Assembly (NCBI GenBank): GCA_964642275.1
Contig: CAZXOA010000001.1
Span: forward strand, 12,729 to 76,728
Source of the DNA: an uncultured Candidatus Saccharibacteria bacterium
GTDB taxonomy: Bacteria > Patescibacteriota > Saccharimonadia > Saccharimonadales > JACDBH01
DNA: 64,000 bases
Direction: 5' to 3'
Shown here piece after piece: positions 257 through 6,646 of this stretch (position 1 is the first letter of the stretch; each line of letters opens with the position of its first letter). The position numbers and the translations under genes were made by a program. The notes beneath the pieces are model-generated. The model saw nothing but the letters and a program-made list of their open reading frames with translations. It was not told the DNA's origin and ran no database searches.

Positions 257-2584
257 CTACTTCTTCTTCCGCCGACCAAACTTCTTCTTAGCCGGAGCCT
301 CGTCAAGCAGTTTCTTTGCCTGGGCCTCTGTCACCGTAGTCGGGTCGGTATCTTTGGGGATGCGGGCGTTCTTTTTGCCATCGGTGACGTACGGGCCGAA
401 CGGGCCGCGCAGAACTTGAATAGTGCCAAAATCTGCTACATTACGCTCGGCGATTTGTTTGAGCTTTTCTTCTATCAGCTCATTGGCTTCTGCTTCGGTG
501 ATAGTAAAGGCGCTGAGCTTTTTGATTGATACGTAAATCGGCTTGGGCTTGAGCATTTTGCCGCTCTTGCCTTTCTCTGATTCGCCTTCAAACTGTACGT
601 AGGGGCCAAAGCGGCCTATATCCGCCAAAATATCTTTGCCGTCCTTGGTTTTGCCAACCAACCGTGGCAAGCCGAACATTGGCAGTGCTTGTTCGAGCGT
701 GACATCATCCATGGTGACGCCGTCGGGCATCGGGGCGAATTCGGGCTTTTCTTCGTCTGAGGTCTCGCCGCGCTGCAGCATGGGGCCGTAGCGGCCAAAG
801 CGTACGACAATCGGTTTGCCGGACTTGGGGTCGTCTCCGAGTTTGCGCTGCTGGCTGGTTTCCTCGCGCGAGACATCAGCACTAGCTTTGATAAGCGGCT
901 TGAAATCATCGTTGTAGAACTCAGCAATCATTTTGTTCCACTTCACTTTGCCTTCTTCGATGTCGTCGAACTCTTTTTCGGCGCCAGCGGTAAAATCGTA
1001 ATCAACAATCGGTGCAAAATACTTGGTGAGGAAGTCGGTGGTTACTTCTGCAACGGAGGTTGGAATCAGCTTGTTTTTGTCGGCACCAGTGATAACTTTT
1101 TCTTCTTTGCCGCCAAGCTGGTCGCCATCGAGAATGAGGGTGTTGATGATGCGCTCTGCCCCCTGCAAGTCACTTTTTTCGACGTAGCCGCGGTCCTGAA
1201 TTGTTGAAATAGTTGGTGCATACGTAGATGGCCGGCCGATACCCATTTCTTCCATGGCTTTGACGAGGCTGGCCTCTGAATAGCGGGCTGGCGGCCGGCT
1301 GAAGGTCTCGGTGGCTTGAATCAGGCCCGGTGTGAGGGTTTGCCCCTGTTTGAGCTCCGGCAGGATGACATCGTCTTTGCCGCCACCGTAAACCCGTAGG
1401 AAGCCGTCAAATAGCAGGACTTCACCCTTGGCCATAAAAACTTCAGGTCGCTGTGAGATGGCGATTGATACCTCGGTCTTATCTACCTTGGCTGGTGTCA
1501 TCTGGCTGGCGAGGGCGCGCTGCCAGATGAGCTTGTAGAGTTTCTTTTGCTGTTCATCGTTGCCGGCTGCGTCTTTATTAAAATCGGTCGGCCGGATGGC
1601 TTCGTGTGCCTCTTGGGCACTGCTGTTCTTGGTCTTGAATTGGCGAACTTGGTGATACTCTTTGCCAAGATTCTTGAGGATGTAACTCTCGGCATTTTTA
1701 ATGGCCTGGCCCGAGAGCACCGTGCTATCGGTACGCATGTAGGTAATATGACCAGATTCGTATAATCGCTGGGCGAGCGTCATAGTCTGGCGCACAGAGT
1801 AGCCGAGCCGGCGGCTGGCCTCTTGTTGGAGCGTGCTGGTCGTAAACGGCGCGCCTGGGTTGCGGCTGCCGGGCTTTTTCTCGATCGCGGTGACGGTGTA
1901 GGTCGCGCCGATAGAATCTTTTAGGAACTTCTCGGCGGCCTTTCGGTCAGCTAGCTTCTCGGTCAGTTCAGCTGGGAATGTTTCTTTGCTGCCGGTGAAG
2001 TCACCAGTGACCTTGTAGGTACTTTCTGCTTCAAAGGCGCGGATTTCGCGTTCGCGCTCAACGATAATGCGTACGGCTACAGATTGGACGCGTCCAGCGC
2101 TGAGGCCCGCACGGACCTTTTTCCATAATACGGGTGATAATTCGTAGCCGACCAAACGGTCGAGCACGCGGCGGGCCTGCTGGGCGTCTACCAGTTGCAG
2201 ATCAACGGTGCGCGGGTTCTCGACGGCGTGCAAGATGGCGTCTTTGGTAATCTCGTGGAACACGATACGCTTGGTCTTCTTAGGGTCCAAACCAAGCGCT
2301 ATACAGAGATGCCAAGCTATCGCCTCGCCTTCACGGTCTTCATCGGATGCCAGCCAGACTTCATGGGTTTTGGCCAGTTTCTTCAGTTCTGCGACGGTCT
2401 TTCTCTTTTCTGGAGAAATCTCGTATGTTGGCTCGAAGTTGTTGGCCTTATCTATAGATATGCCCTTTTTTGGCAGATCACGAATATGGCCAAAGCTGCT
2501 TTTGACCGTAAAATCCTTGCCCAGGAATTTCTCAATTGTCTTGGCTTTGGCCGGGCTCTCTACTATTACTAAGTTTTTGCTCAT
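257..2584 (-). CDS. topA: DNA topoisomerase I
   Basis: 775-aa ORF with a Toprim N-terminus (MSKNLVIVESPAKAKTIEKFLG...) and a Lys-rich C-terminal tail. It sits immediately downstream of dprA, the conserved smf-topA arrangement. Confidence 0.9.
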   Translation of the reverse strand: MSKNLVIVESPAKAKTIEKFLGKDFTVKSSFGHIRDLPKKGISIDKANNFEPTYEISPEKRKTVAELKKLAKTHEVWLASDEDREGEAIAWHLCIALGLDPKKTKRIVFHEITKDAILHAVENPRTVDLQLVDAQQARRVLDRLVGYELSPVLWKKVRAGLSAGRVQSVAVRIIVEREREIRAFEAESTYKVTGDFTGSKETFPAELTEKLADRKAAEKFLKDSIGATYTVTAIEKKPGSRNPGAPFTTSTLQQEASRRLGYSVRQTMTLAQRLYESGHITYMRTDSTVLSGQAIKNAESYILKNLGKEYHQVRQFKTKNSSAQEAHEAIRPTDFNKDAAGNDEQQKKLYKLIWQRALASQMTPAKVDKTEVSIAISQRPEVFMAKGEVLLFDGFLRVYGGGKDDVILPELKQGQTLTPGLIQATETFSRPPARYSEASLVKAMEEMGIGRPSTYAPTISTIQDRGYVEKSDLQGAERIINTLILDGDQLGGKEEKVITGADKNKLIPTSVAEVTTDFLTKYFAPIVDYDFTAGAEKEFDDIEEGKVKWNKMIAEFYNDDFKPLIKASADVSREETSQQRKLGDDPKSGKPIVVRFGRYGPMLQRGETSDEEKPEFAPMPDGVTMDDVTLEQALPMFGLPRLVGKTKDGKDILADIGRFGPYVQFEGESEKGKSGKMLKPKPIYVSIKKLSAFTITEAEANELIEEKLKQIAERNVADFGTIQVLRGPFGPYVTDGKKNARIPKDTDPTTVTEAQAKKLLDEAPAKKKFGRRKKK

Positions 2585-2814
2585 AAAGGTTATGCATAAG
2601 AGTGTAGCACGACAATTTTTATCGTGTCACCCGACGCTCAAGCCTAGCACAGGGGTTTTTAGTTTGGCAAATAGAAATGTTCTTGCGACCAAGAACCAAG
2701 TCGCTTCTTTTCTGTGTCAGCAGAAAAGAAGCCAAAAGACTGACCGGCAGCGCTGAATAATTAACTTGCTTTTCGTCCTTTTGGACTCATCAGAACAACC
2801 GCACAGTTGTTTAA

Positions 2815-3050
2815 GCGGAAATGACAAGCAGACAATAGTTTAGGAATGGGAGAGTGGCATGAGGGCCAAACGCCTGGGTTATCCCAAACTACTCTCTGCC
2901 TGCCACTGCCGCTCGTGCGTTCAGCTCTCGCTGAGGGCCCTCGCGTACAGCGAGCGTGTGTCTTCTATTCCTAAACACACAAGATGAGGGGCAAGAGCAC
3001 CCTGAAATGCACTTGCTTCTCACCTTGTGATGTCTGTCTGCTTGTCAAAA
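2815..3050. ncRNA. candidate structured RNA element in the dprA-topA spacer; identity unknown
   Basis: GC-rich segment in a 695-bp non-coding gap. It has nested long-range complementarity: tgacaagcagaca (2822-2834) pairs with tgtctgcttgtca (3036-3048), gtttaggaa (2838-2846) pairs with ttcctaaac (2970-2978), and there is the gagggccctc palindrome plus further local hairpins. Strand cannot be determined. Confidence 0.25.
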
Positions 3051-3279
3051 ATCAAGGGGAGACAAAACTCGACCCTATCTTCTCATTATATCACACATTT
3101 CAAGCCTTGTCAATGATTTTTGCTTATTTACCACTGCTCCACCACTATTAAGCAGACACTTTTCGGCCGAGGGTCATTTGGTGTATTTTGAGGCTTCCAT
3201 TTCGGAAGCGTACATGTGGGTACGGTGAAGAAATGTCCTGAAAATACGGCAAATGACCACTCCAAAAATGTCTGCGCGC

Positions 3280-4128
3280 TTATGCGAGTCCCCATAGGTT
3301 GTTGCCCAAGGGGCGAATCCGCCCGGTGAGTTCAAGCATGGTGAGAGACTGGTTGAACTTGGCCGGGTCGAGCTCGCTCTTTATAAGCAGTTCGTGGCCG
3401 TCTGATATCCCGTCTGCCAGTAGCTCCAGGATACGGCGCTCTTCTTCGGTGCTGGTGATGGTATCGGCTGGTTTGTTGGTGAATTTCCAAGGCATTTCAT
3501 TGACAATATCGTTAATGTTTCTGACCAGAACCGCTCCGGCCTTTATCAGATTGTTCGTACCCTCTGAGGTTGGGCTGTTAATCGGCCCGGGGACGGCAAA
3601 GACCGGTATGCCAAGCTCGAGTGCAAATCGGGCGGTATGCAAACTGCCGCTGTTCACAGCAGCTTCGGTTATCAGCAATCCCTCAGCCAGGCCTGCTATT
3701 ATCCTGTTGCGCGCAATAAAATTGTGGCGCATCGGCTCGGTACGCTTAGGATATTCGGTTACGAGCAACCCTCCTGCACCGGCAATCCGGCGGGCGAGCT
3801 GAAAGTGTGAGGTCGGATATATCCGATCAAGACCAGCGGGAAGGACGGCAACGGTGCCACCTCCGGCGTCGAGGCAACTTGTGTGGGCGATAGAATCGAT
3901 CCCAAGCGCCAAGCCGCTTACAATCACCACCCCCTTCCTTGCGAGATCGCTGGCCAGCTTGGCGGTGACGCTACGGCCATACGGAGAAACCTTGCGACTT
4001 CCCACGATTGCTATGCGGGGCTTCTCCATCATATGTTGCAGGTGATTTCCTGATACAAAGAGTTGTTTTGGAGGCTCGTGCAATCGTAGCAGTTCTTGAG
4101 GTAAATCAGGGGTAGTAAGCGTAACCAT
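3280..4128 (-). CDS. dprA: DNA processing protein DprA (Smf)
   Basis: Rossmann-like DprA motifs (IVSGLALGIDSIAHTSCLDAGGGTVAVLPAGLD). The ORF is open to 4173 (GTG), but the ATG at 4128 (MVTLTTPDL...) preceded by GGAG is the more likely start. Confidence 0.8.
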   Translation of the reverse strand: MVTLTTPDLPQELLRLHEPPKQLFVSGNHLQHMMEKPRIAIVGSRKVSPYGRSVTAKLASDLARKGVVIVSGLALGIDSIAHTSCLDAGGGTVAVLPAGLDRIYPTSHFQLARRIAGAGGLLVTEYPKRTEPMRHNFIARNRIIAGLAEGLLITEAAVNSGSLHTARFALELGIPVFAVPGPINSPTSEGTNNLIKAGAVLVRNINDIVNEMPWKFTNKPADTITSTEEERRILELLADGISDGHELLIKSELDPAKFNQSLTMLELTGRIRPLGNNLWGLA

Positions 4129-4160
4129 ATTGACATTATTCTCCAAAAATGAAATAGGTA

Positions 4161-4189
4161 TTGACATAATCACACAAATTTGCTAAAAT
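4161..4189 (+). promoter_or_regulatory. consensus sigma-70 promoter (TTGACA-17-TAAAAT) with no ORF downstream
   Basis: TTGACA at 4161-4166, an exact 17-nt spacer, TAAAAT at 4184-4189. It fires into a non-coding 350-nt region. Confidence 0.5.
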
Positions 4190-4195
4190 GGCAAC

Positions 4196-4549
4196 TTGTA
4201 ATCACCTGTGAGGTGAATTACGTACCTTATACCCCTATGCTAACCCATGGCAACATAAGTTGCCGTGATGTTAGAAAAGCTTTAGAACGTGCCAAGACAA
4301 GTTGTTACCCTCCACTTATCTCACGCATGTATATCCTTGGATATACGGCGTTCTAAAGCACACTATTCCCTTTAACCCCGTGTACCCACCGCGTTTTATT
4401 TGCGGCTATAATTGGCGTTACATCGGACAAACCTAGAGTGGGCCGACGAGTATCTTTACGAGAATACTGGTCGGAGGCCTTCAAGGTGGGTTGAAGGGTG
4501 TAATGAGCCTTCAGCGGTGCCCACCCCCTCTGAAGGCTCTTTATATTTG
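4196..4549 (+). ncRNA. promoter-to-terminator structured RNA or long regulatory leader upstream of the sigma factor gene
   Basis: Bounded by the consensus promoter at 4161 and a terminator hairpin at 4505-4549. It has multiple hairpins (cacctgtgaggtg; ggcaac-ataa-gttgcc; ccgacgagtatct/agaatactggtcgg). It holds only a 39-aa ORF with no Shine-Dalgarno sequence. Confidence 0.3.
4505..4549 (+). terminator. rho-independent terminator with an attenuator-like alternative pairing
   Basis: A 10-bp perfect stem, gagccttcag (4505-4514) with ctgaaggctc (4530-4539), followed by tttatatttg. The upstream hairpin ccttcaa/ttgaagg (4478-4497) shares the same heptamer, so B:C and A:D pairings are possible. Confidence 0.45.
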
Positions 4550-4585
4550 TAAAAGGAAATGAAAGTATTATTTTATAATACTATA

Positions 4586-4615
4586 TTGACAGATTATACA
4601 ATTCTGTGCTATAAT
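4586..4615 (+). promoter_or_regulatory. sigma-70 promoter (TTGACA-18-TATAAT) for the sigma factor gene, implying a leaderless transcript
   Basis: The -10 hexamer ends at 4615 and the ATG is at 4623, so the predicted TSS coincides with the start codon. Confidence 0.5.
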
Positions 4616-4622
4616 AAACTCT

Positions 4623-5957
4623 ATGTATATGTACAGAGATGAGAAAACCATCTACGATTATCCTGAACTATACGAGGATAATTATACAGGTTTCGATGCC
4701 ACTCAGCGATGGGAGGCCGGCGTGGTTTCTGTAGATGAGATGTTTGACCCATATTGCCAGGATGTGTCGGCGGATGCTCTGCCCGAAGGCAGGTTTCCTT
4801 TTATGACAGATGCCGACAGGGCTTTTGATCAGAAAATGCGGAGTCTCTGCCCTGCAGCAGGCTACTTGGATAAAGATGAGGAAGCGCTACTGACACGCCA
4901 GGCTCAGGATGGCTCACAAGAGGCCAAAGAGCGTTTGCTTGAGACGAATCTGAAGTTTGTTTTGTGGTTTGCTCGTGAAACCATGGGGTGGCACAAAAAA
5001 CGTAACCAGGAGGTGGGTCGCGAAGCTACTGACTCCAGCGTTACAAACGGCAAGCTACAAGACTATGCTGCCGCACCGCTTGACTATTCCGATAGAGTAC
5101 AAGCAGTAGCTATGGGGTTACTTCAGGCAATAGAAAAGCATGATCCCGAACGAGGCAGGCTCAAGACCATTGCCAGCATTTATATGGAGAGAGCGTTAGT
5201 CAGAGAGATACAGGATACCTCGGAGGAGTTTATAACACGTATACCAGTCCATAGGCATGGCGAATACCGCAGGATTATGGGCAGTACCCGGCAAGCCGCC
5301 GATGAAGGCCGACGGCCGAACCTTGATGAGACAGTCTATGAAACGGGTTTGAGCCATGAATTTGTGGAGTGGATATCTGGTCGGATGGTCACTCTGCGCA
5401 GCGGTTTATCCGTGCAGTACTTAACCGAATACTTCGATGATCAGGCCGAGGACGGGCATGATAGCGATGGCCCTTTGAGCTTTGCGGATCGGGTACAAGC
5501 GCAGGAGGGTTTATCGGCTGAGGCGGTGAGCGGACAAATAGCTACTCAAAGAGTAGTTGAAGAGGTGCTCAATGACCTGAGCGAACGGGAGCGGAGTGTG
5601 GTTGAGATGCGCTTTGGTATTGCCGATAATTCACCCATGCCACTTCATGAGGTTGCACAGGCTCTTGCAGAGATTACCGGGAAGCAAATTACGAGGGAGC
5701 GTGTCCGGCAGATCGAAGCCAAGACCCTGGCTAAGCTTCGGCACCCAAATAAGAGCGGGCCACTCAGGGGGGTATTAGATGGAGGCGCTCATGAACCTGG
5801 TAGTGGAAACAGAGATGGCGTCATCTATGTTACTCAAGACGAATTAGCCGGTTTAAACCTGCCACCCGTTGTTAGATTCGATAACAGGCCGAGCTATAAG
5901 TACAGAGATACGGATCGCCCTCGGCGGTCAAGATTTAAGTACACAGAGGACTGGTAG
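4623..5957 (+). CDS. RNA polymerase sigma factor, sigma-70 family, with atypical N- and C-terminal extensions
   Basis: Region 2 (LETNLKFVLWFARE...; DRVQAVAMGLLQAIEKHDPERG) and a region 4.2 HTH (QALAEITGKQITRERVRQIEAKTLAKLRH). About 70 extra C-terminal residues follow region 4, and there are insertions between the conserved regions. Confidence 0.7.
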   Translation: MYMYRDEKTIYDYPELYEDNYTGFDATQRWEAGVVSVDEMFDPYCQDVSADALPEGRFPFMTDADRAFDQKMRSLCPAAGYLDKDEEALLTRQAQDGSQEAKERLLETNLKFVLWFARETMGWHKKRNQEVGREATDSSVTNGKLQDYAAAPLDYSDRVQAVAMGLLQAIEKHDPERGRLKTIASIYMERALVREIQDTSEEFITRIPVHRHGEYRRIMGSTRQAADEGRRPNLDETVYETGLSHEFVEWISGRMVTLRSGLSVQYLTEYFDDQAEDGHDSDGPLSFADRVQAQEGLSAEAVSGQIATQRVVEEVLNDLSERERSVVEMRFGIADNSPMPLHEVAQALAEITGKQITRERVRQIEAKTLAKLRHPNKSGPLRGVLDGGAHEPGSGNRDGVIYVTQDELAGLNLPPVVRFDNRPSYKYRDTDRPRRSRFKYTEDW

Positions 5958-6007: not shown

Positions 6008-6646
6008 TTAAGCTAGGAAGTTCCTTGTTTCGGGGGTGAGTTTTTCGCCGAAGATGGCTTCGTTGAGGATAGCGATTGTTTCGGTCGAAAGTGCTTTTAG
6101 CTTGCCCTGCTCTTCTGCGCTAAACTTCTGAAGGACAAAGTCGGCTGAATCTATCTGCTCAGGCTTTTTGGGGCCAATGCCGATGCGTACGCGGGCAAAA
6201 TCTTCGCCGCAGTGCTGGATGATCGACTTGATACCGTTGTGCCCTGCTGCGCTGCCGCCAATGCTAGTGCGGATTTTGCCGAACTTTACATCCAGCTCAT
6301 CGTGCACGACGATGGTGTCGGCATTTGATATTTTATAAAAACGTTGCACAGCCTGCACAGCTTCGCCGCTGAGATTCATAAAAGTCCGCGGTTTTATGAC
6401 AATAATCCGGGCCGAGCCGATTTTTAGGTCGGCCACAAGGCTCTTGAGAACCTTTTTTTCGCTGTATGAGCCATTTTCAGCCTCTACGAGGCGGTCTGCA
6501 CAGTAAAAGCCGATATTATGCCGGGTGTGATCGTATTCGGTGCCTGGGTTGCCGAGGCCCACGATAAGTTTGGTCTTTTCGGTGCCAAAACTGACGTTAT
6601 ACGTCACTTCAATTTCTGGCTGCTGGCGGCGCTGAAATAATCCCAT
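6008..6646 (-). CDS. pth: peptidyl-tRNA hydrolase
   Basis: Pth family signature (GLGNPGTEYDHTRHNIGF...). Confidence 0.9.
   Translation of the reverse strand: MGLFQRRQQPEIEVTYNVSFGTEKTKLIVGLGNPGTEYDHTRHNIGFYCADRLVEAENGSYSEKKVLKSLVADLKIGSARIIVIKPRTFMNLSGEAVQAVQRFYKISNADTIVVHDELDVKFGKIRTSIGGSAAGHNGIKSIIQHCGEDFARVRIGIGPKKPEQIDSADFVLQKFSAEEQGKLKALSTETIAILNEAIFGEKLTPETRNFLA

Follow-up and report, generated by a model that had tools for sequence, protein, structure and literature searches.

Is a long, hairpin-rich stretch of DNA just upstream of a sigma factor gene a leader that controls this gene, or a gene in its own right? We address this question for positions 4161-4549 of a 64-kb stretch of DNA from an uncultured Candidatus Saccharibacteria bacterium (hereafter the window, meaning that stretch at its full length). 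A sequence-only reading of the window had proposed that a consensus promoter drives a structured RNA of roughly 350 nt ending in an attenuator-like terminator, and that this RNA could be either an independent small RNA (sRNA) or a riboswitch- or attenuator-type leader. Homologous loci, the consensus structure and complementary sequences make it likely that 4161-4549 holds an entire gene, transcribed on its own, whose product is a structured non-coding RNA of about 355 nt, that the RNA belongs to a family found throughout Saccharibacteria (TM7), and that it acts in trans, with the messenger RNA (mRNA) of hsp20 as its most concrete candidate partner.

A conserved transcription unit

The RNA gene sits in a 494-nt gap (4129-4622) between dprA, whose product matches DNA_processg_A with an E-value of 5e-73, and an open reading frame (ORF) for a sigma-70-family protein (Table 1). 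The promoter TTGACA-17-TAAAAT named by the sequence-only reading is indeed present; it scores 11/12 in a promoter scan and carries a TG extension. The same scan returned 9 promoter-like sites in 4 kb, compared with 4.4 +/- 2.0 in shuffled sequences. The hairpin and U-run that had been taken for a terminator lie exactly where they had been placed. The absence of a credible ORF in between also holds, as the longest ORFs encode 58, 44 and 46 aa and have no Pfam match, and the described richness in hairpins is borne out by a minimum free energy of -128.9 kcal/mol for 4196-4552 (z = -7.0 against dinucleotide shuffles).

Relatives were collected along two routes, of which the one via the neighbouring protein DprA is independent of any RNA pattern. 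DprA has plentiful relatives with identities of 55-78%, and several of these carry the name Candidatus Saccharibacteria or Saccharimonadales. Seven contigs with such relatives share the order pth, a small variable gene, a gap of 450-700 nt, dprA, topA and a gene for a 349-aa sigma-like protein. Their gaps align to window 4161-4550, with a conserved promoter, six long invariant blocks and large insertions within hairpins; the contigs of the closest DprA relatives, P0122 and P0125, stop about 50 nt upstream of dprA and contribute no RNA sequence. The other route was a metagenome survey in which public contigs were searched for an exact match to one invariant 19-mer, AAGTTGTTACCCTCCACTT, which gave at least 120 matches (loci are numbered with the prefix L). 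With the full unit defined by TTGACA upstream and the 3' block GCGGTGCCCACCCCC downstream of the 19-mer, at least 102 loci on Saccharibacteria contigs contain a complete unit; 95 copies are unique and form 88 clusters below 90% identity. The window RNA has a median identity of 61% to the other full units.

Both ends of the unit are preserved in this set. Among the 95 unique copies, which were selected for TTGACA, the spacer measures 17 nt in 87, the TG extension is found in 94 and nearly all have a -10 box of the TAnnAT type, while 91 show at least 5 U in the 8 nt behind the terminator stem. The promoter is also conserved in the relatives reached via DprA.

The gene order common to the relatives is topA(-) dprA(-) RNA(+) pth(-). 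When the window neighbours were compared by tblastn with about 100 oriented loci, the RNA was almost everywhere flanked by a divergent dprA at 32-36 nt or, where dprA is missing, by topA. In the same loci pth is convergent downstream of the RNA, sometimes only 3-40 nt beyond the terminator, and the searches with these neighbours found no gene on the RNA strand downstream of the RNA. Copies with no adjacent dprA and with topA at a distance of 100-730 nt, such as those in L014, L083, L100, L116 and L124, keep all blocks. The conservation that the sequence-only reading had asked for in relatives is thus found in more than 100 Saccharibacteria loci, where the RNA has its own conserved promoter and terminator whatever lies downstream; the proposal of an independent sRNA fits these data, and the RNA has no cis target.

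A mobile origin is not indicated, as searches of phage and plasmid collections gave no similarity. A complete ordinary copy of the RNA is present in L135 (IMG/VR contig IMGVR_UViG_3300049064_000004, filed as viral); the contig probably is a piece of Saccharibacteria DNA or bears a prophage, and the copy is not likely to be carried by a phage.

Table 1. Genes, promoters and RNA elements around the RNA gene, in window coordinates.
Feature	Position	Strand	Details
topA	257-2584	-	
dprA	3280-4128	-	ATG at 4128, 33 nt from the -35 box of the RNA gene
RNA-gene promoter	4161-4189	+	-35 TTGACA 4161-4166; 17-nt spacer; TG-extended -10 TGCTAAAAT 4181-4189 (TAAAAT 4184-4189)
Candidate dprA promoter	4166-4194	-	TTGCCA-17-GATTAT with TG, 9/12; overlaps the RNA promoter fully, back to back; putative function
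Transcribed RNA, about 355 nt	4193-4549	+	predicted 5' end at about 4193-4198 from promoter geometry; predicted 3' end from the U-run
P1, 5' hairpin	4198-4221	+	GUAAUCACC...GGUGAAUUAC; in 79/79 representatives, with 76 different sequences
Block A1, single-stranded C-rich linker	4222-4239	+	core ACCUUAUACCCC 4224-4235; columns invariant or nearly so, unpaired in all consensus folds
P2	4240-4274	+	CUAAC 4240-4244 with GUUAG 4270-4274, around a variable hairpin 4247-4266
P3, long helix	4279-4359	+	GCUUUAGAACG 4279-4289 with CGUUCUAAAGC 4349-4359; closes a three-way junction holding A3 and hairpin P3b 4329-4346
A3, apical stem-loop	4299-4317	+	4-bp stem AAGU/ACUU; 11-nt loop UGUUACCCUCC 4303-4313 with anti-Shine-Dalgarno-like CCUCC
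P5, 5' strand	4368-4378	+	CCCUUUAACCC; pairs with 4488-4498 as a long-range helix
Central domain, architecture A	4379-4487	+	helices 4379-4387/4414-4425 and 4431-4444/4476-4487; hairpin 4390-4404; apical hairpin 4445-4475 with conserved loop UCUUUACGAGAA
P5, 3' strand	4488-4498	+	GGGUUGAAGGG; includes ttgaagg 4491-4497; GGUGGG at 4485-4490 precedes
Intrinsic terminator	4505-4548	+	10-bp stem gagccttcag 4505-4514/ctgaaggctc 4530-4539; 15-nt loop CGGUGCCCACCCCCU 4515-4529; U-run tttatattt 4540-4548
Second promoter	4586-4615	+	TTGACA-18-TATAAT, 12/12
Sigma-70-family ORF	4623-5957	+	ATG at 4623, 7 nt past the -10 box of the second promoter
pth	6008-6646	-	

Consensus fold and covariation

Helices were judged from anchored alignments and RNAalifold, in place of a full-length covariance model. 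In 65 anchored sequences, P3 and the terminator stem together comprise 1748 Watson-Crick, 116 G-U and 13 A-C pairs; because G-U pairs outnumber A-C pairs in this way, the RNA is read from the + strand of the window, in agreement with promoter and U-run. Compensatory changes in homologous loci, which the sequence-only reading had suggested looking for, occur in P3, P5, the central domain and the terminator.

The 5' domain begins with P1, which averages 9.6 bp and -9.0 kcal/mol (-3.0 in shuffles). P2 encloses an insert whose size differs widely among relatives, the extremes being a 4-nt loop and about 170 inserted nt, and its GUUAG strand has an alternative partner in most relatives, a second CUAAC downstream of P3, in the place of which the window has CUAUU. 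P3 comprises 16 pairs according to RNAalifold, 7 of them with compensatory double changes, and contains a conserved A-A mismatch. The A3 stem-loop, one arm of the junction that P3 closes, is invariant in 8/8 loci reached via DprA, independently of the search pattern, and covariation is seen in P3a, the helix that flanks it.

The 3' domain is closed by P5, in which AAC/GUU is replaced by AAG/CUU in 12 sequences, and by CCUUUCAAC/GUUGAAAGG and CUCUUCAAC/GUUGAAGAG in L018 and L020, respectively. The helix encloses a central domain that exists in two architectures, A (the type of the window; 21/88 representatives) and B (67/88). For the window-type 3' domain, 15 sequences support a 44-pair structure in which 98.6% of cells are paired, P5 completely so, and 13 pairs have changed on both sides; none of 500 shuffles reached any observed measure, and slid controls were 34-54% paired. 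The terminator has the hallmark of an intrinsic terminator, a stem and U-run kept by compensatory changes: positions 2-9 of the stem show 3-5 Watson-Crick pair types each, 8/10 pairs change on both sides, and variants include CCUUCAG/CUGAAGG, CCUCCAG/CUGGAGG, CUUCCAG/CUGGAAG, UCUCCAG/CUGGAGA and CCUGUAG/CUACAGG. The 15-nt loop on this stem is invariant family-wide, its core GGUGCCCACCCCC being unchanged in every full-length copy, including copies that had not been selected for the loop.

A mutual-information scan between blocks recovered the known helices only and no pseudoknot. A kissing interaction of GGUGGG (4485-4490) with CCCACC of the terminator loop was considered and rejected: despite the complementarity, L026, L037, L066 and L090 have another sequence in place of GGUGGG with the loop unchanged, and architecture A uses GGUGGG in other helices.

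Some copies are much longer. In L006:2880-3480 and L010:2850-3470 (-), about 170 nt are inserted in P2 and an additional hairpin of 29 nt precedes the terminator, and L018 and L129 have about 200 nt extra ahead of the terminator; fixed points of the RNA can accommodate very large expansions in this family. At the other extreme, L023 and L096 are 'mini' versions that lack the whole 3' domain and have an A1-like linker, P2 (UCUAAC/GUUAGA) and the A3 stem-loop, unchanged and borne by a long stem; in L096 this stem is terminator-like and ends in a U-run. Since only A1, P2 and A3 are kept in these two loci, the 5' module can stand alone.

The sigma factor gene and the leader hypothesis

If the RNA were a cis-acting leader, attenuator or riboswitch, its terminator would control read-through into the sigma gene at 4623. 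The terminator does lie 75 nt upstream of this ORF on the same strand, and the two 3' hairpins share a heptamer in this one sequence, so that alternative pairings can be drawn. We nevertheless consider a leader function very remote, because the downstream gene is convergent in other genomes and the sigma gene is inserted in this genome only: it is missing from this position in every relative, and pth, on the opposite strand, is convergent downstream of the RNA in essentially all of them. The hallmark of a conserved same-strand downstream gene is thus lacking in about 100 loci, and that of conserved mutually exclusive pairings is lacking as well. The sigma gene also has a promoter of its own, which, as the sequence-only reading had noticed, is placed for a leaderless transcript.

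The heptamer itself has to be split into letters and pairings. The short hairpin with the arms ccttcaa (4478-4484) and ttgaagg is present in the sequence and can form, but its pairing is not evolutionarily supported and the sharing of the heptamer with the terminator is peculiar to this genome. In the consensus, ccttcaa pairs with 4431-4444 and is replaced by unrelated sequence in architecture B, while ttgaagg belongs to the covarying P5. Relatives carry many other terminator-stem sequences than the window does, and the heptamer common to both hairpins is not conserved because this stem is free to vary. The proposed mutually exclusive terminator and antiterminator pairings are therefore not supported.

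The product of the sigma ORF is a 444-aa sigma-70-family protein with region 4 and a weak region 2. Among 5.8 billion proteins its close matches are its own records only, followed by RpoD proteins of about 33% identity, several of which are named actinobacterial, and a genome scan with the protein gave one unrelated actinobacterial locus. Relatives carry instead the 349-aa sigma-like gene beyond topA, with Sigma70_r4 and a faint HARE-HTH match. Judged from these comparisons, the sigma gene appears to have been inserted between the RNA gene and pth.

Tests against coding capacity and known RNAs

That the region encodes a small protein, or is a decaying pseudogene, is hardly conceivable. ORFs can be drawn, as listed above, yet they lack Pfam matches, conservation peaks in loops and spans every codon position, and the helices covary. 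Moreover, the distances between invariant blocks in the 88 homologues are spread evenly over the residues modulo 3 (31/26/23 and 24/28/36); because the block spacing is out of register, the RNA is not coding.

With Rfam 15 at gathering thresholds, the 64-kb window contains two transfer RNAs only, and 4050-4700 gave nothing relevant on either strand at E-values up to 10. Nineteen relatives (7 + 12), searched at gathering and permissive thresholds (E up to 1), gave nothing relevant either, with no match to ribonuclease P (RNase P) RNA, transfer-messenger RNA (tmRNA), signal recognition particle (SRP) RNA, 6S RNA or raiA. The scan for a known family that had accompanied the sequence-only reading as a check thus matched none; the family stands outside Rfam 15, and no description of this RNA was found in the literature on Saccharibacteria or other members of the Candidate Phyla Radiation (CPR).

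Could the RNA then be one of the universal housekeeping RNAs (RNase P, tmRNA, 6S or SRP RNA) in a form so highly diverged that standard models overlook it? Size, strong promoter, single copy and phylum-wide conservation would fit, and there are short likenesses to E. coli M1 RNA, of the reverse complement of A1 to AUAGGGGU--AUAAGGUACG and of block A5 to GGGUGAAAGGGUG, presumably in the J11/12 region. CPR RNase P RNAs are diverged and can fall below Rfam thresholds (PMC8172020). This explanation is very improbable all the same. ARAGORN detected no tmRNA in the window; a T-arm-like motif occurs in only 1/88 members, and there is no Rfam tmRNA match. RF00010 and RF00011 were without match on either strand at E-values up to 10 in the window and up to 1 in the 19 relatives. 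The RNase P motif CR-I (GNAANNUCNGNG) is found in 0/88 members on the RNA strand and 1/88 on the opposite strand, and the CR-V-type motif ACAGAA..GGCUUA (P4 3' strand) in 0/88; both motifs are present in E. coli M1 RNA (rnpB), which served as a check. The ends of the RNA are a 5' hairpin and a terminator that do not pair with each other, so there is no RNase P-like P1. Nor does the RNA resemble 6S RNA: RF00013 does not match, and in place of a rod with paired ends and a large central bubble the consensus has several domains and unpaired ends. The study of CPR RNase P obtained an RF00010-type RNase P RNA from each of its two complete Saccharimonadia genomes (PMC8172020).

The stronger of the two M1 likenesses was judged to be chance. 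The reverse complement of A1 aligns to AUAGGGGUUCAUAAGGUACG with a local score of 29 (shuffles 18.2 +/- 2.2, maximum 27), yet it does so on the wrong strand and in a non-conserved part of M1, presumably P13/P14; the core motifs of P4 are lacking as well. P13/P14 helices are missing from many CPR RNase P RNAs (PMC8172020).

Complementarity to hsp20 ribosome-binding sites

The A3 loop, exposed on a covarying stem within a unit that has its own promoter and terminator, corresponds to what is expected of a base-pairing sRNA with a conserved seed. Three of the matches to the A3 19-mer (L023, L096 and L038) are not full copies of the RNA, and L038 supplied a candidate target: in its reverse complement, the 19-mer abuts the ATG of an Hsp20-family ORF there (AAGUGGAGGGUAACAACUU-AUG), giving 19 contiguous complementary nt. 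As a test of this pairing, the hsp20 genes of L138 and L139 were then fetched. Their ribosome-binding sites, GUGGAGGGUAACA and UGGAGGGUAA, offer 13 and 10 contiguous nt, respectively, complementary to the A3 loop and covering the Shine-Dalgarno (SD) sequence.

Predicted duplex energies of A3 with the sites of L038, L138 and L139 are -32.3, -24.7 and -19.7 kcal/mol, whereas the ordinary anti-SD tail reaches -9.8 on the same sites. Against 286 SD-bearing initiation regions from 894 kb of Saccharibacteria DNA (A3 duplex mean -9.3, standard deviation 3.4), L138 ranks 1 and L139 ranks 5. The sequence GGAGGGUAA is not a generic ribosome-binding site: it occurs nowhere else in the 64-kb window and has only 4 other occurrences in the 894 kb; typical sites in the window are AGGAGGUG-like. 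Reading of the three hsp20 leaders revealed no internal C-rich partner within them. Taken by itself, the complementarity of hsp20 to the A3 loop is suggestive rather than proof of an interaction.

The hsp20 genes have neighbours of their own: in L038 and L139 hsp20 is divergently paired with a comFC-like gene (with a zinc-ribbon N-terminus or a Pribosyltran match), and in L138 and L139 it adjoins T4SS-pilin genes.

Proposed mode of action and its rivals

How might such an RNA work? Transcription would start at the near-consensus, TG-extended sigma-70 promoter and end at the intrinsic terminator, which abuts a convergent pth in most genomes. The 5' domain would then consist of P1, the C-rich linker A1, P2 and a P3-closed three-way junction that displays the loop UGUUACCCUCC, and in the 3' domain the long-range P5 would close the lineage-variable core, followed by the terminator hairpin with its invariant 15-nt C-rich loop. 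We infer that the RNA acts in trans through these invariant, exposed C-rich loops. In the case of hsp20, the RNA stretch UGUUACCCUCCAC would pair at the ribosome-binding site, with the A3 loop covering the Shine-Dalgarno sequence and spacer of the mRNA, and ribosome access would be blocked; heat could lift this repression. A fold so large and complex hints at additional partners, be they protein or RNA. We give about even chances to the full proposition that the RNA represents a class of large structured RNAs not described before, single-copy, strongly transcribed and Saccharibacteria-wide, in which at least one C-rich loop is an anti-ribosome-binding-site seed for hsp20 mRNA and the remaining fold has a further function, perhaps that of a ribonucleoprotein or a sensor.

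Several points weigh against this account of the RNA gene and its action on hsp20. The hsp20 link consists of three orthologous genes, which are not fully independent, and chance could account for a single exact 19-mer match, given how large the database is. A3 never varies, so the pairing comes without covariation, and its invariance in the metagenome set is partly by construction, A3 having been the search pattern. Duplex scans of A1, A3 and A6 over both strands of the window, which contains no hsp20 gene, found no target above background. The ends of the transcript are predictions from promoter geometry and U-run. Finally, a multi-domain fold of 330-600 nt goes far beyond the needs of a base-pairing sRNA, and the pairing with hsp20 may be secondary or coincidental.

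A rival idea is that the RNA is the scaffold or the catalytic component of a ribonucleoprotein or RNA-only assembly, comparable to raiA, OLE, ROOL and GOLLD RNAs, and that its complementarity to hsp20 is incidental. Many invariant nucleotides in loops and junctions, the multi-domain fold with its swappable central domain and large optional insertions, and a single copy beside competence and translation-related genes, which echoes the raiA motif RNA between comFC and raiA (PMC10861870), all speak for it. We regard it as unlikely, though by no means far-fetched: the data point to no partner protein or activity, Rfam gives no match to the raiA, OLE, ROOL or GOLLD classes, and the mini versions indicate that the A3 module works alone. 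A mainly local role, in which transcription of the RNA or its antisense overlap with the 5' end of dprA sets the level of dprA, appears improbable. The dprA start lies 32-36 nt from the -35 box of the RNA gene in most loci, and the RNA promoter is overlapped on the other strand by a TG-extended candidate promoter, so that, as far as can be read from the sequence, RNA gene and dprA may compete for RNA polymerase. Promoter interference, however, needs neither 350 nt of covarying structure nor invariant loops, and the five loci named above keep all blocks without an adjacent dprA. The overlapping divergent promoter may add a local effect, yet it cannot explain the conserved structure or the copies away from dprA.

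Among known systems, the closest in proposed mechanism are the base-pairing sRNAs with C-rich loops, such as RsaE/RoxS and S. aureus RNAIII. These also have their own promoters and terminators, exposed C-rich loops (CCUCC, CCCC) able to pair with SD regions, and ribosome-binding sites as targets, for which hsp20 is the candidate here. The Saccharibacteria RNA differs in being 3-4 times longer and multi-domain, with long-range helices, in showing no sequence or model similarity, and in that its target rests on complementarity in three genes. The raiA motif RNA of Bacillota and Actinomycetota comes closest in character and context; it is a single-copy, free-standing, trans-acting RNA with invariant nucleotides, covarying helices and alternative versions of one domain (PMC10861870). 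Its model comprises P1-P6, two pseudoknots and 51 conserved positions, and it is associated with comFC and raiA (PMC10861870), as the RNA described here is with dprA and pth, in both cases a combination of competence and translation-related genes. The likeness is one of context and general character only, with no Rfam raiA match at permissive thresholds, and the Saccharibacteria RNA is larger (about 330-600 nt), has a conserved terminator with an invariant loop and belongs to another phylum. As the models do not match, the RNA is a member of neither group. OLE, ROOL and GOLLD (PMC12286853) are likewise large, highly conserved, elaborately folded and lineage-restricted RNAs whose biochemical role is unassigned; the RNA described here is smaller, matches none of their models and has a chromosomal, housekeeping-like synteny in place of an association with phages or extremophiles. 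As in attenuators and riboswitch leaders, structured sequence on the 5' side precedes a terminator of hairpin and U-run; a same-strand downstream gene in relatives and a conserved alternative pairing are, however, absent.

Biological significance

Saccharibacteria and other CPR bacteria have tiny genomes with few recognisable regulators, and an RNA family helps to fill this gap. The large size, the invariant loops, the single syntenic place throughout the group and the near-consensus promoter make it likely that the RNA is important to the cell, and the family is a new entry on the short list of large bacterial RNAs of open function. If the anti-ribosome-binding-site reading of the A3 seed is true, it would be a housekeeping-grade riboregulator in a phylum for which a preprint on the transcriptome of TM7x reports no validated small RNAs in that strain. 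For annotators, the RNA offers a conserved marker that current pipelines miss. Because Saccharibacteria are naturally transformable (PMC10633639), the RNA can be deleted or mutated and the hsp20 hypothesis can be tested directly.

Neighbouring elements between dprA and topA

The gap between dprA and topA contains further candidate structures. Sub-threshold matches to the type III hammerhead (gathering score 48.5) are found on the topA strand at window 2765-2819 (-), L010:5355-5409 and L037:3085-3143, with 30.3, 38 and 39.2 bits and E-values from 2.6e-4 to 2.6e-5. Their core, CUGAUGAG-stem II-CGAAA, is canonical, and stem II covaries among genomes (GUCC/GGAC, GCUC/GAGC, GCUG/CAGC); the motif is present in 5/67 loci with enough upstream sequence. 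In the window, the non-coding stretch of 496 nt upstream of topA (2585-3113; z = -7.3) is headed by a 12/12 consensus promoter (3113..3085, -) and includes the hammerhead-like element; 2585-3113 (-) could be either an extended, structured leader of topA or another RNA gene.

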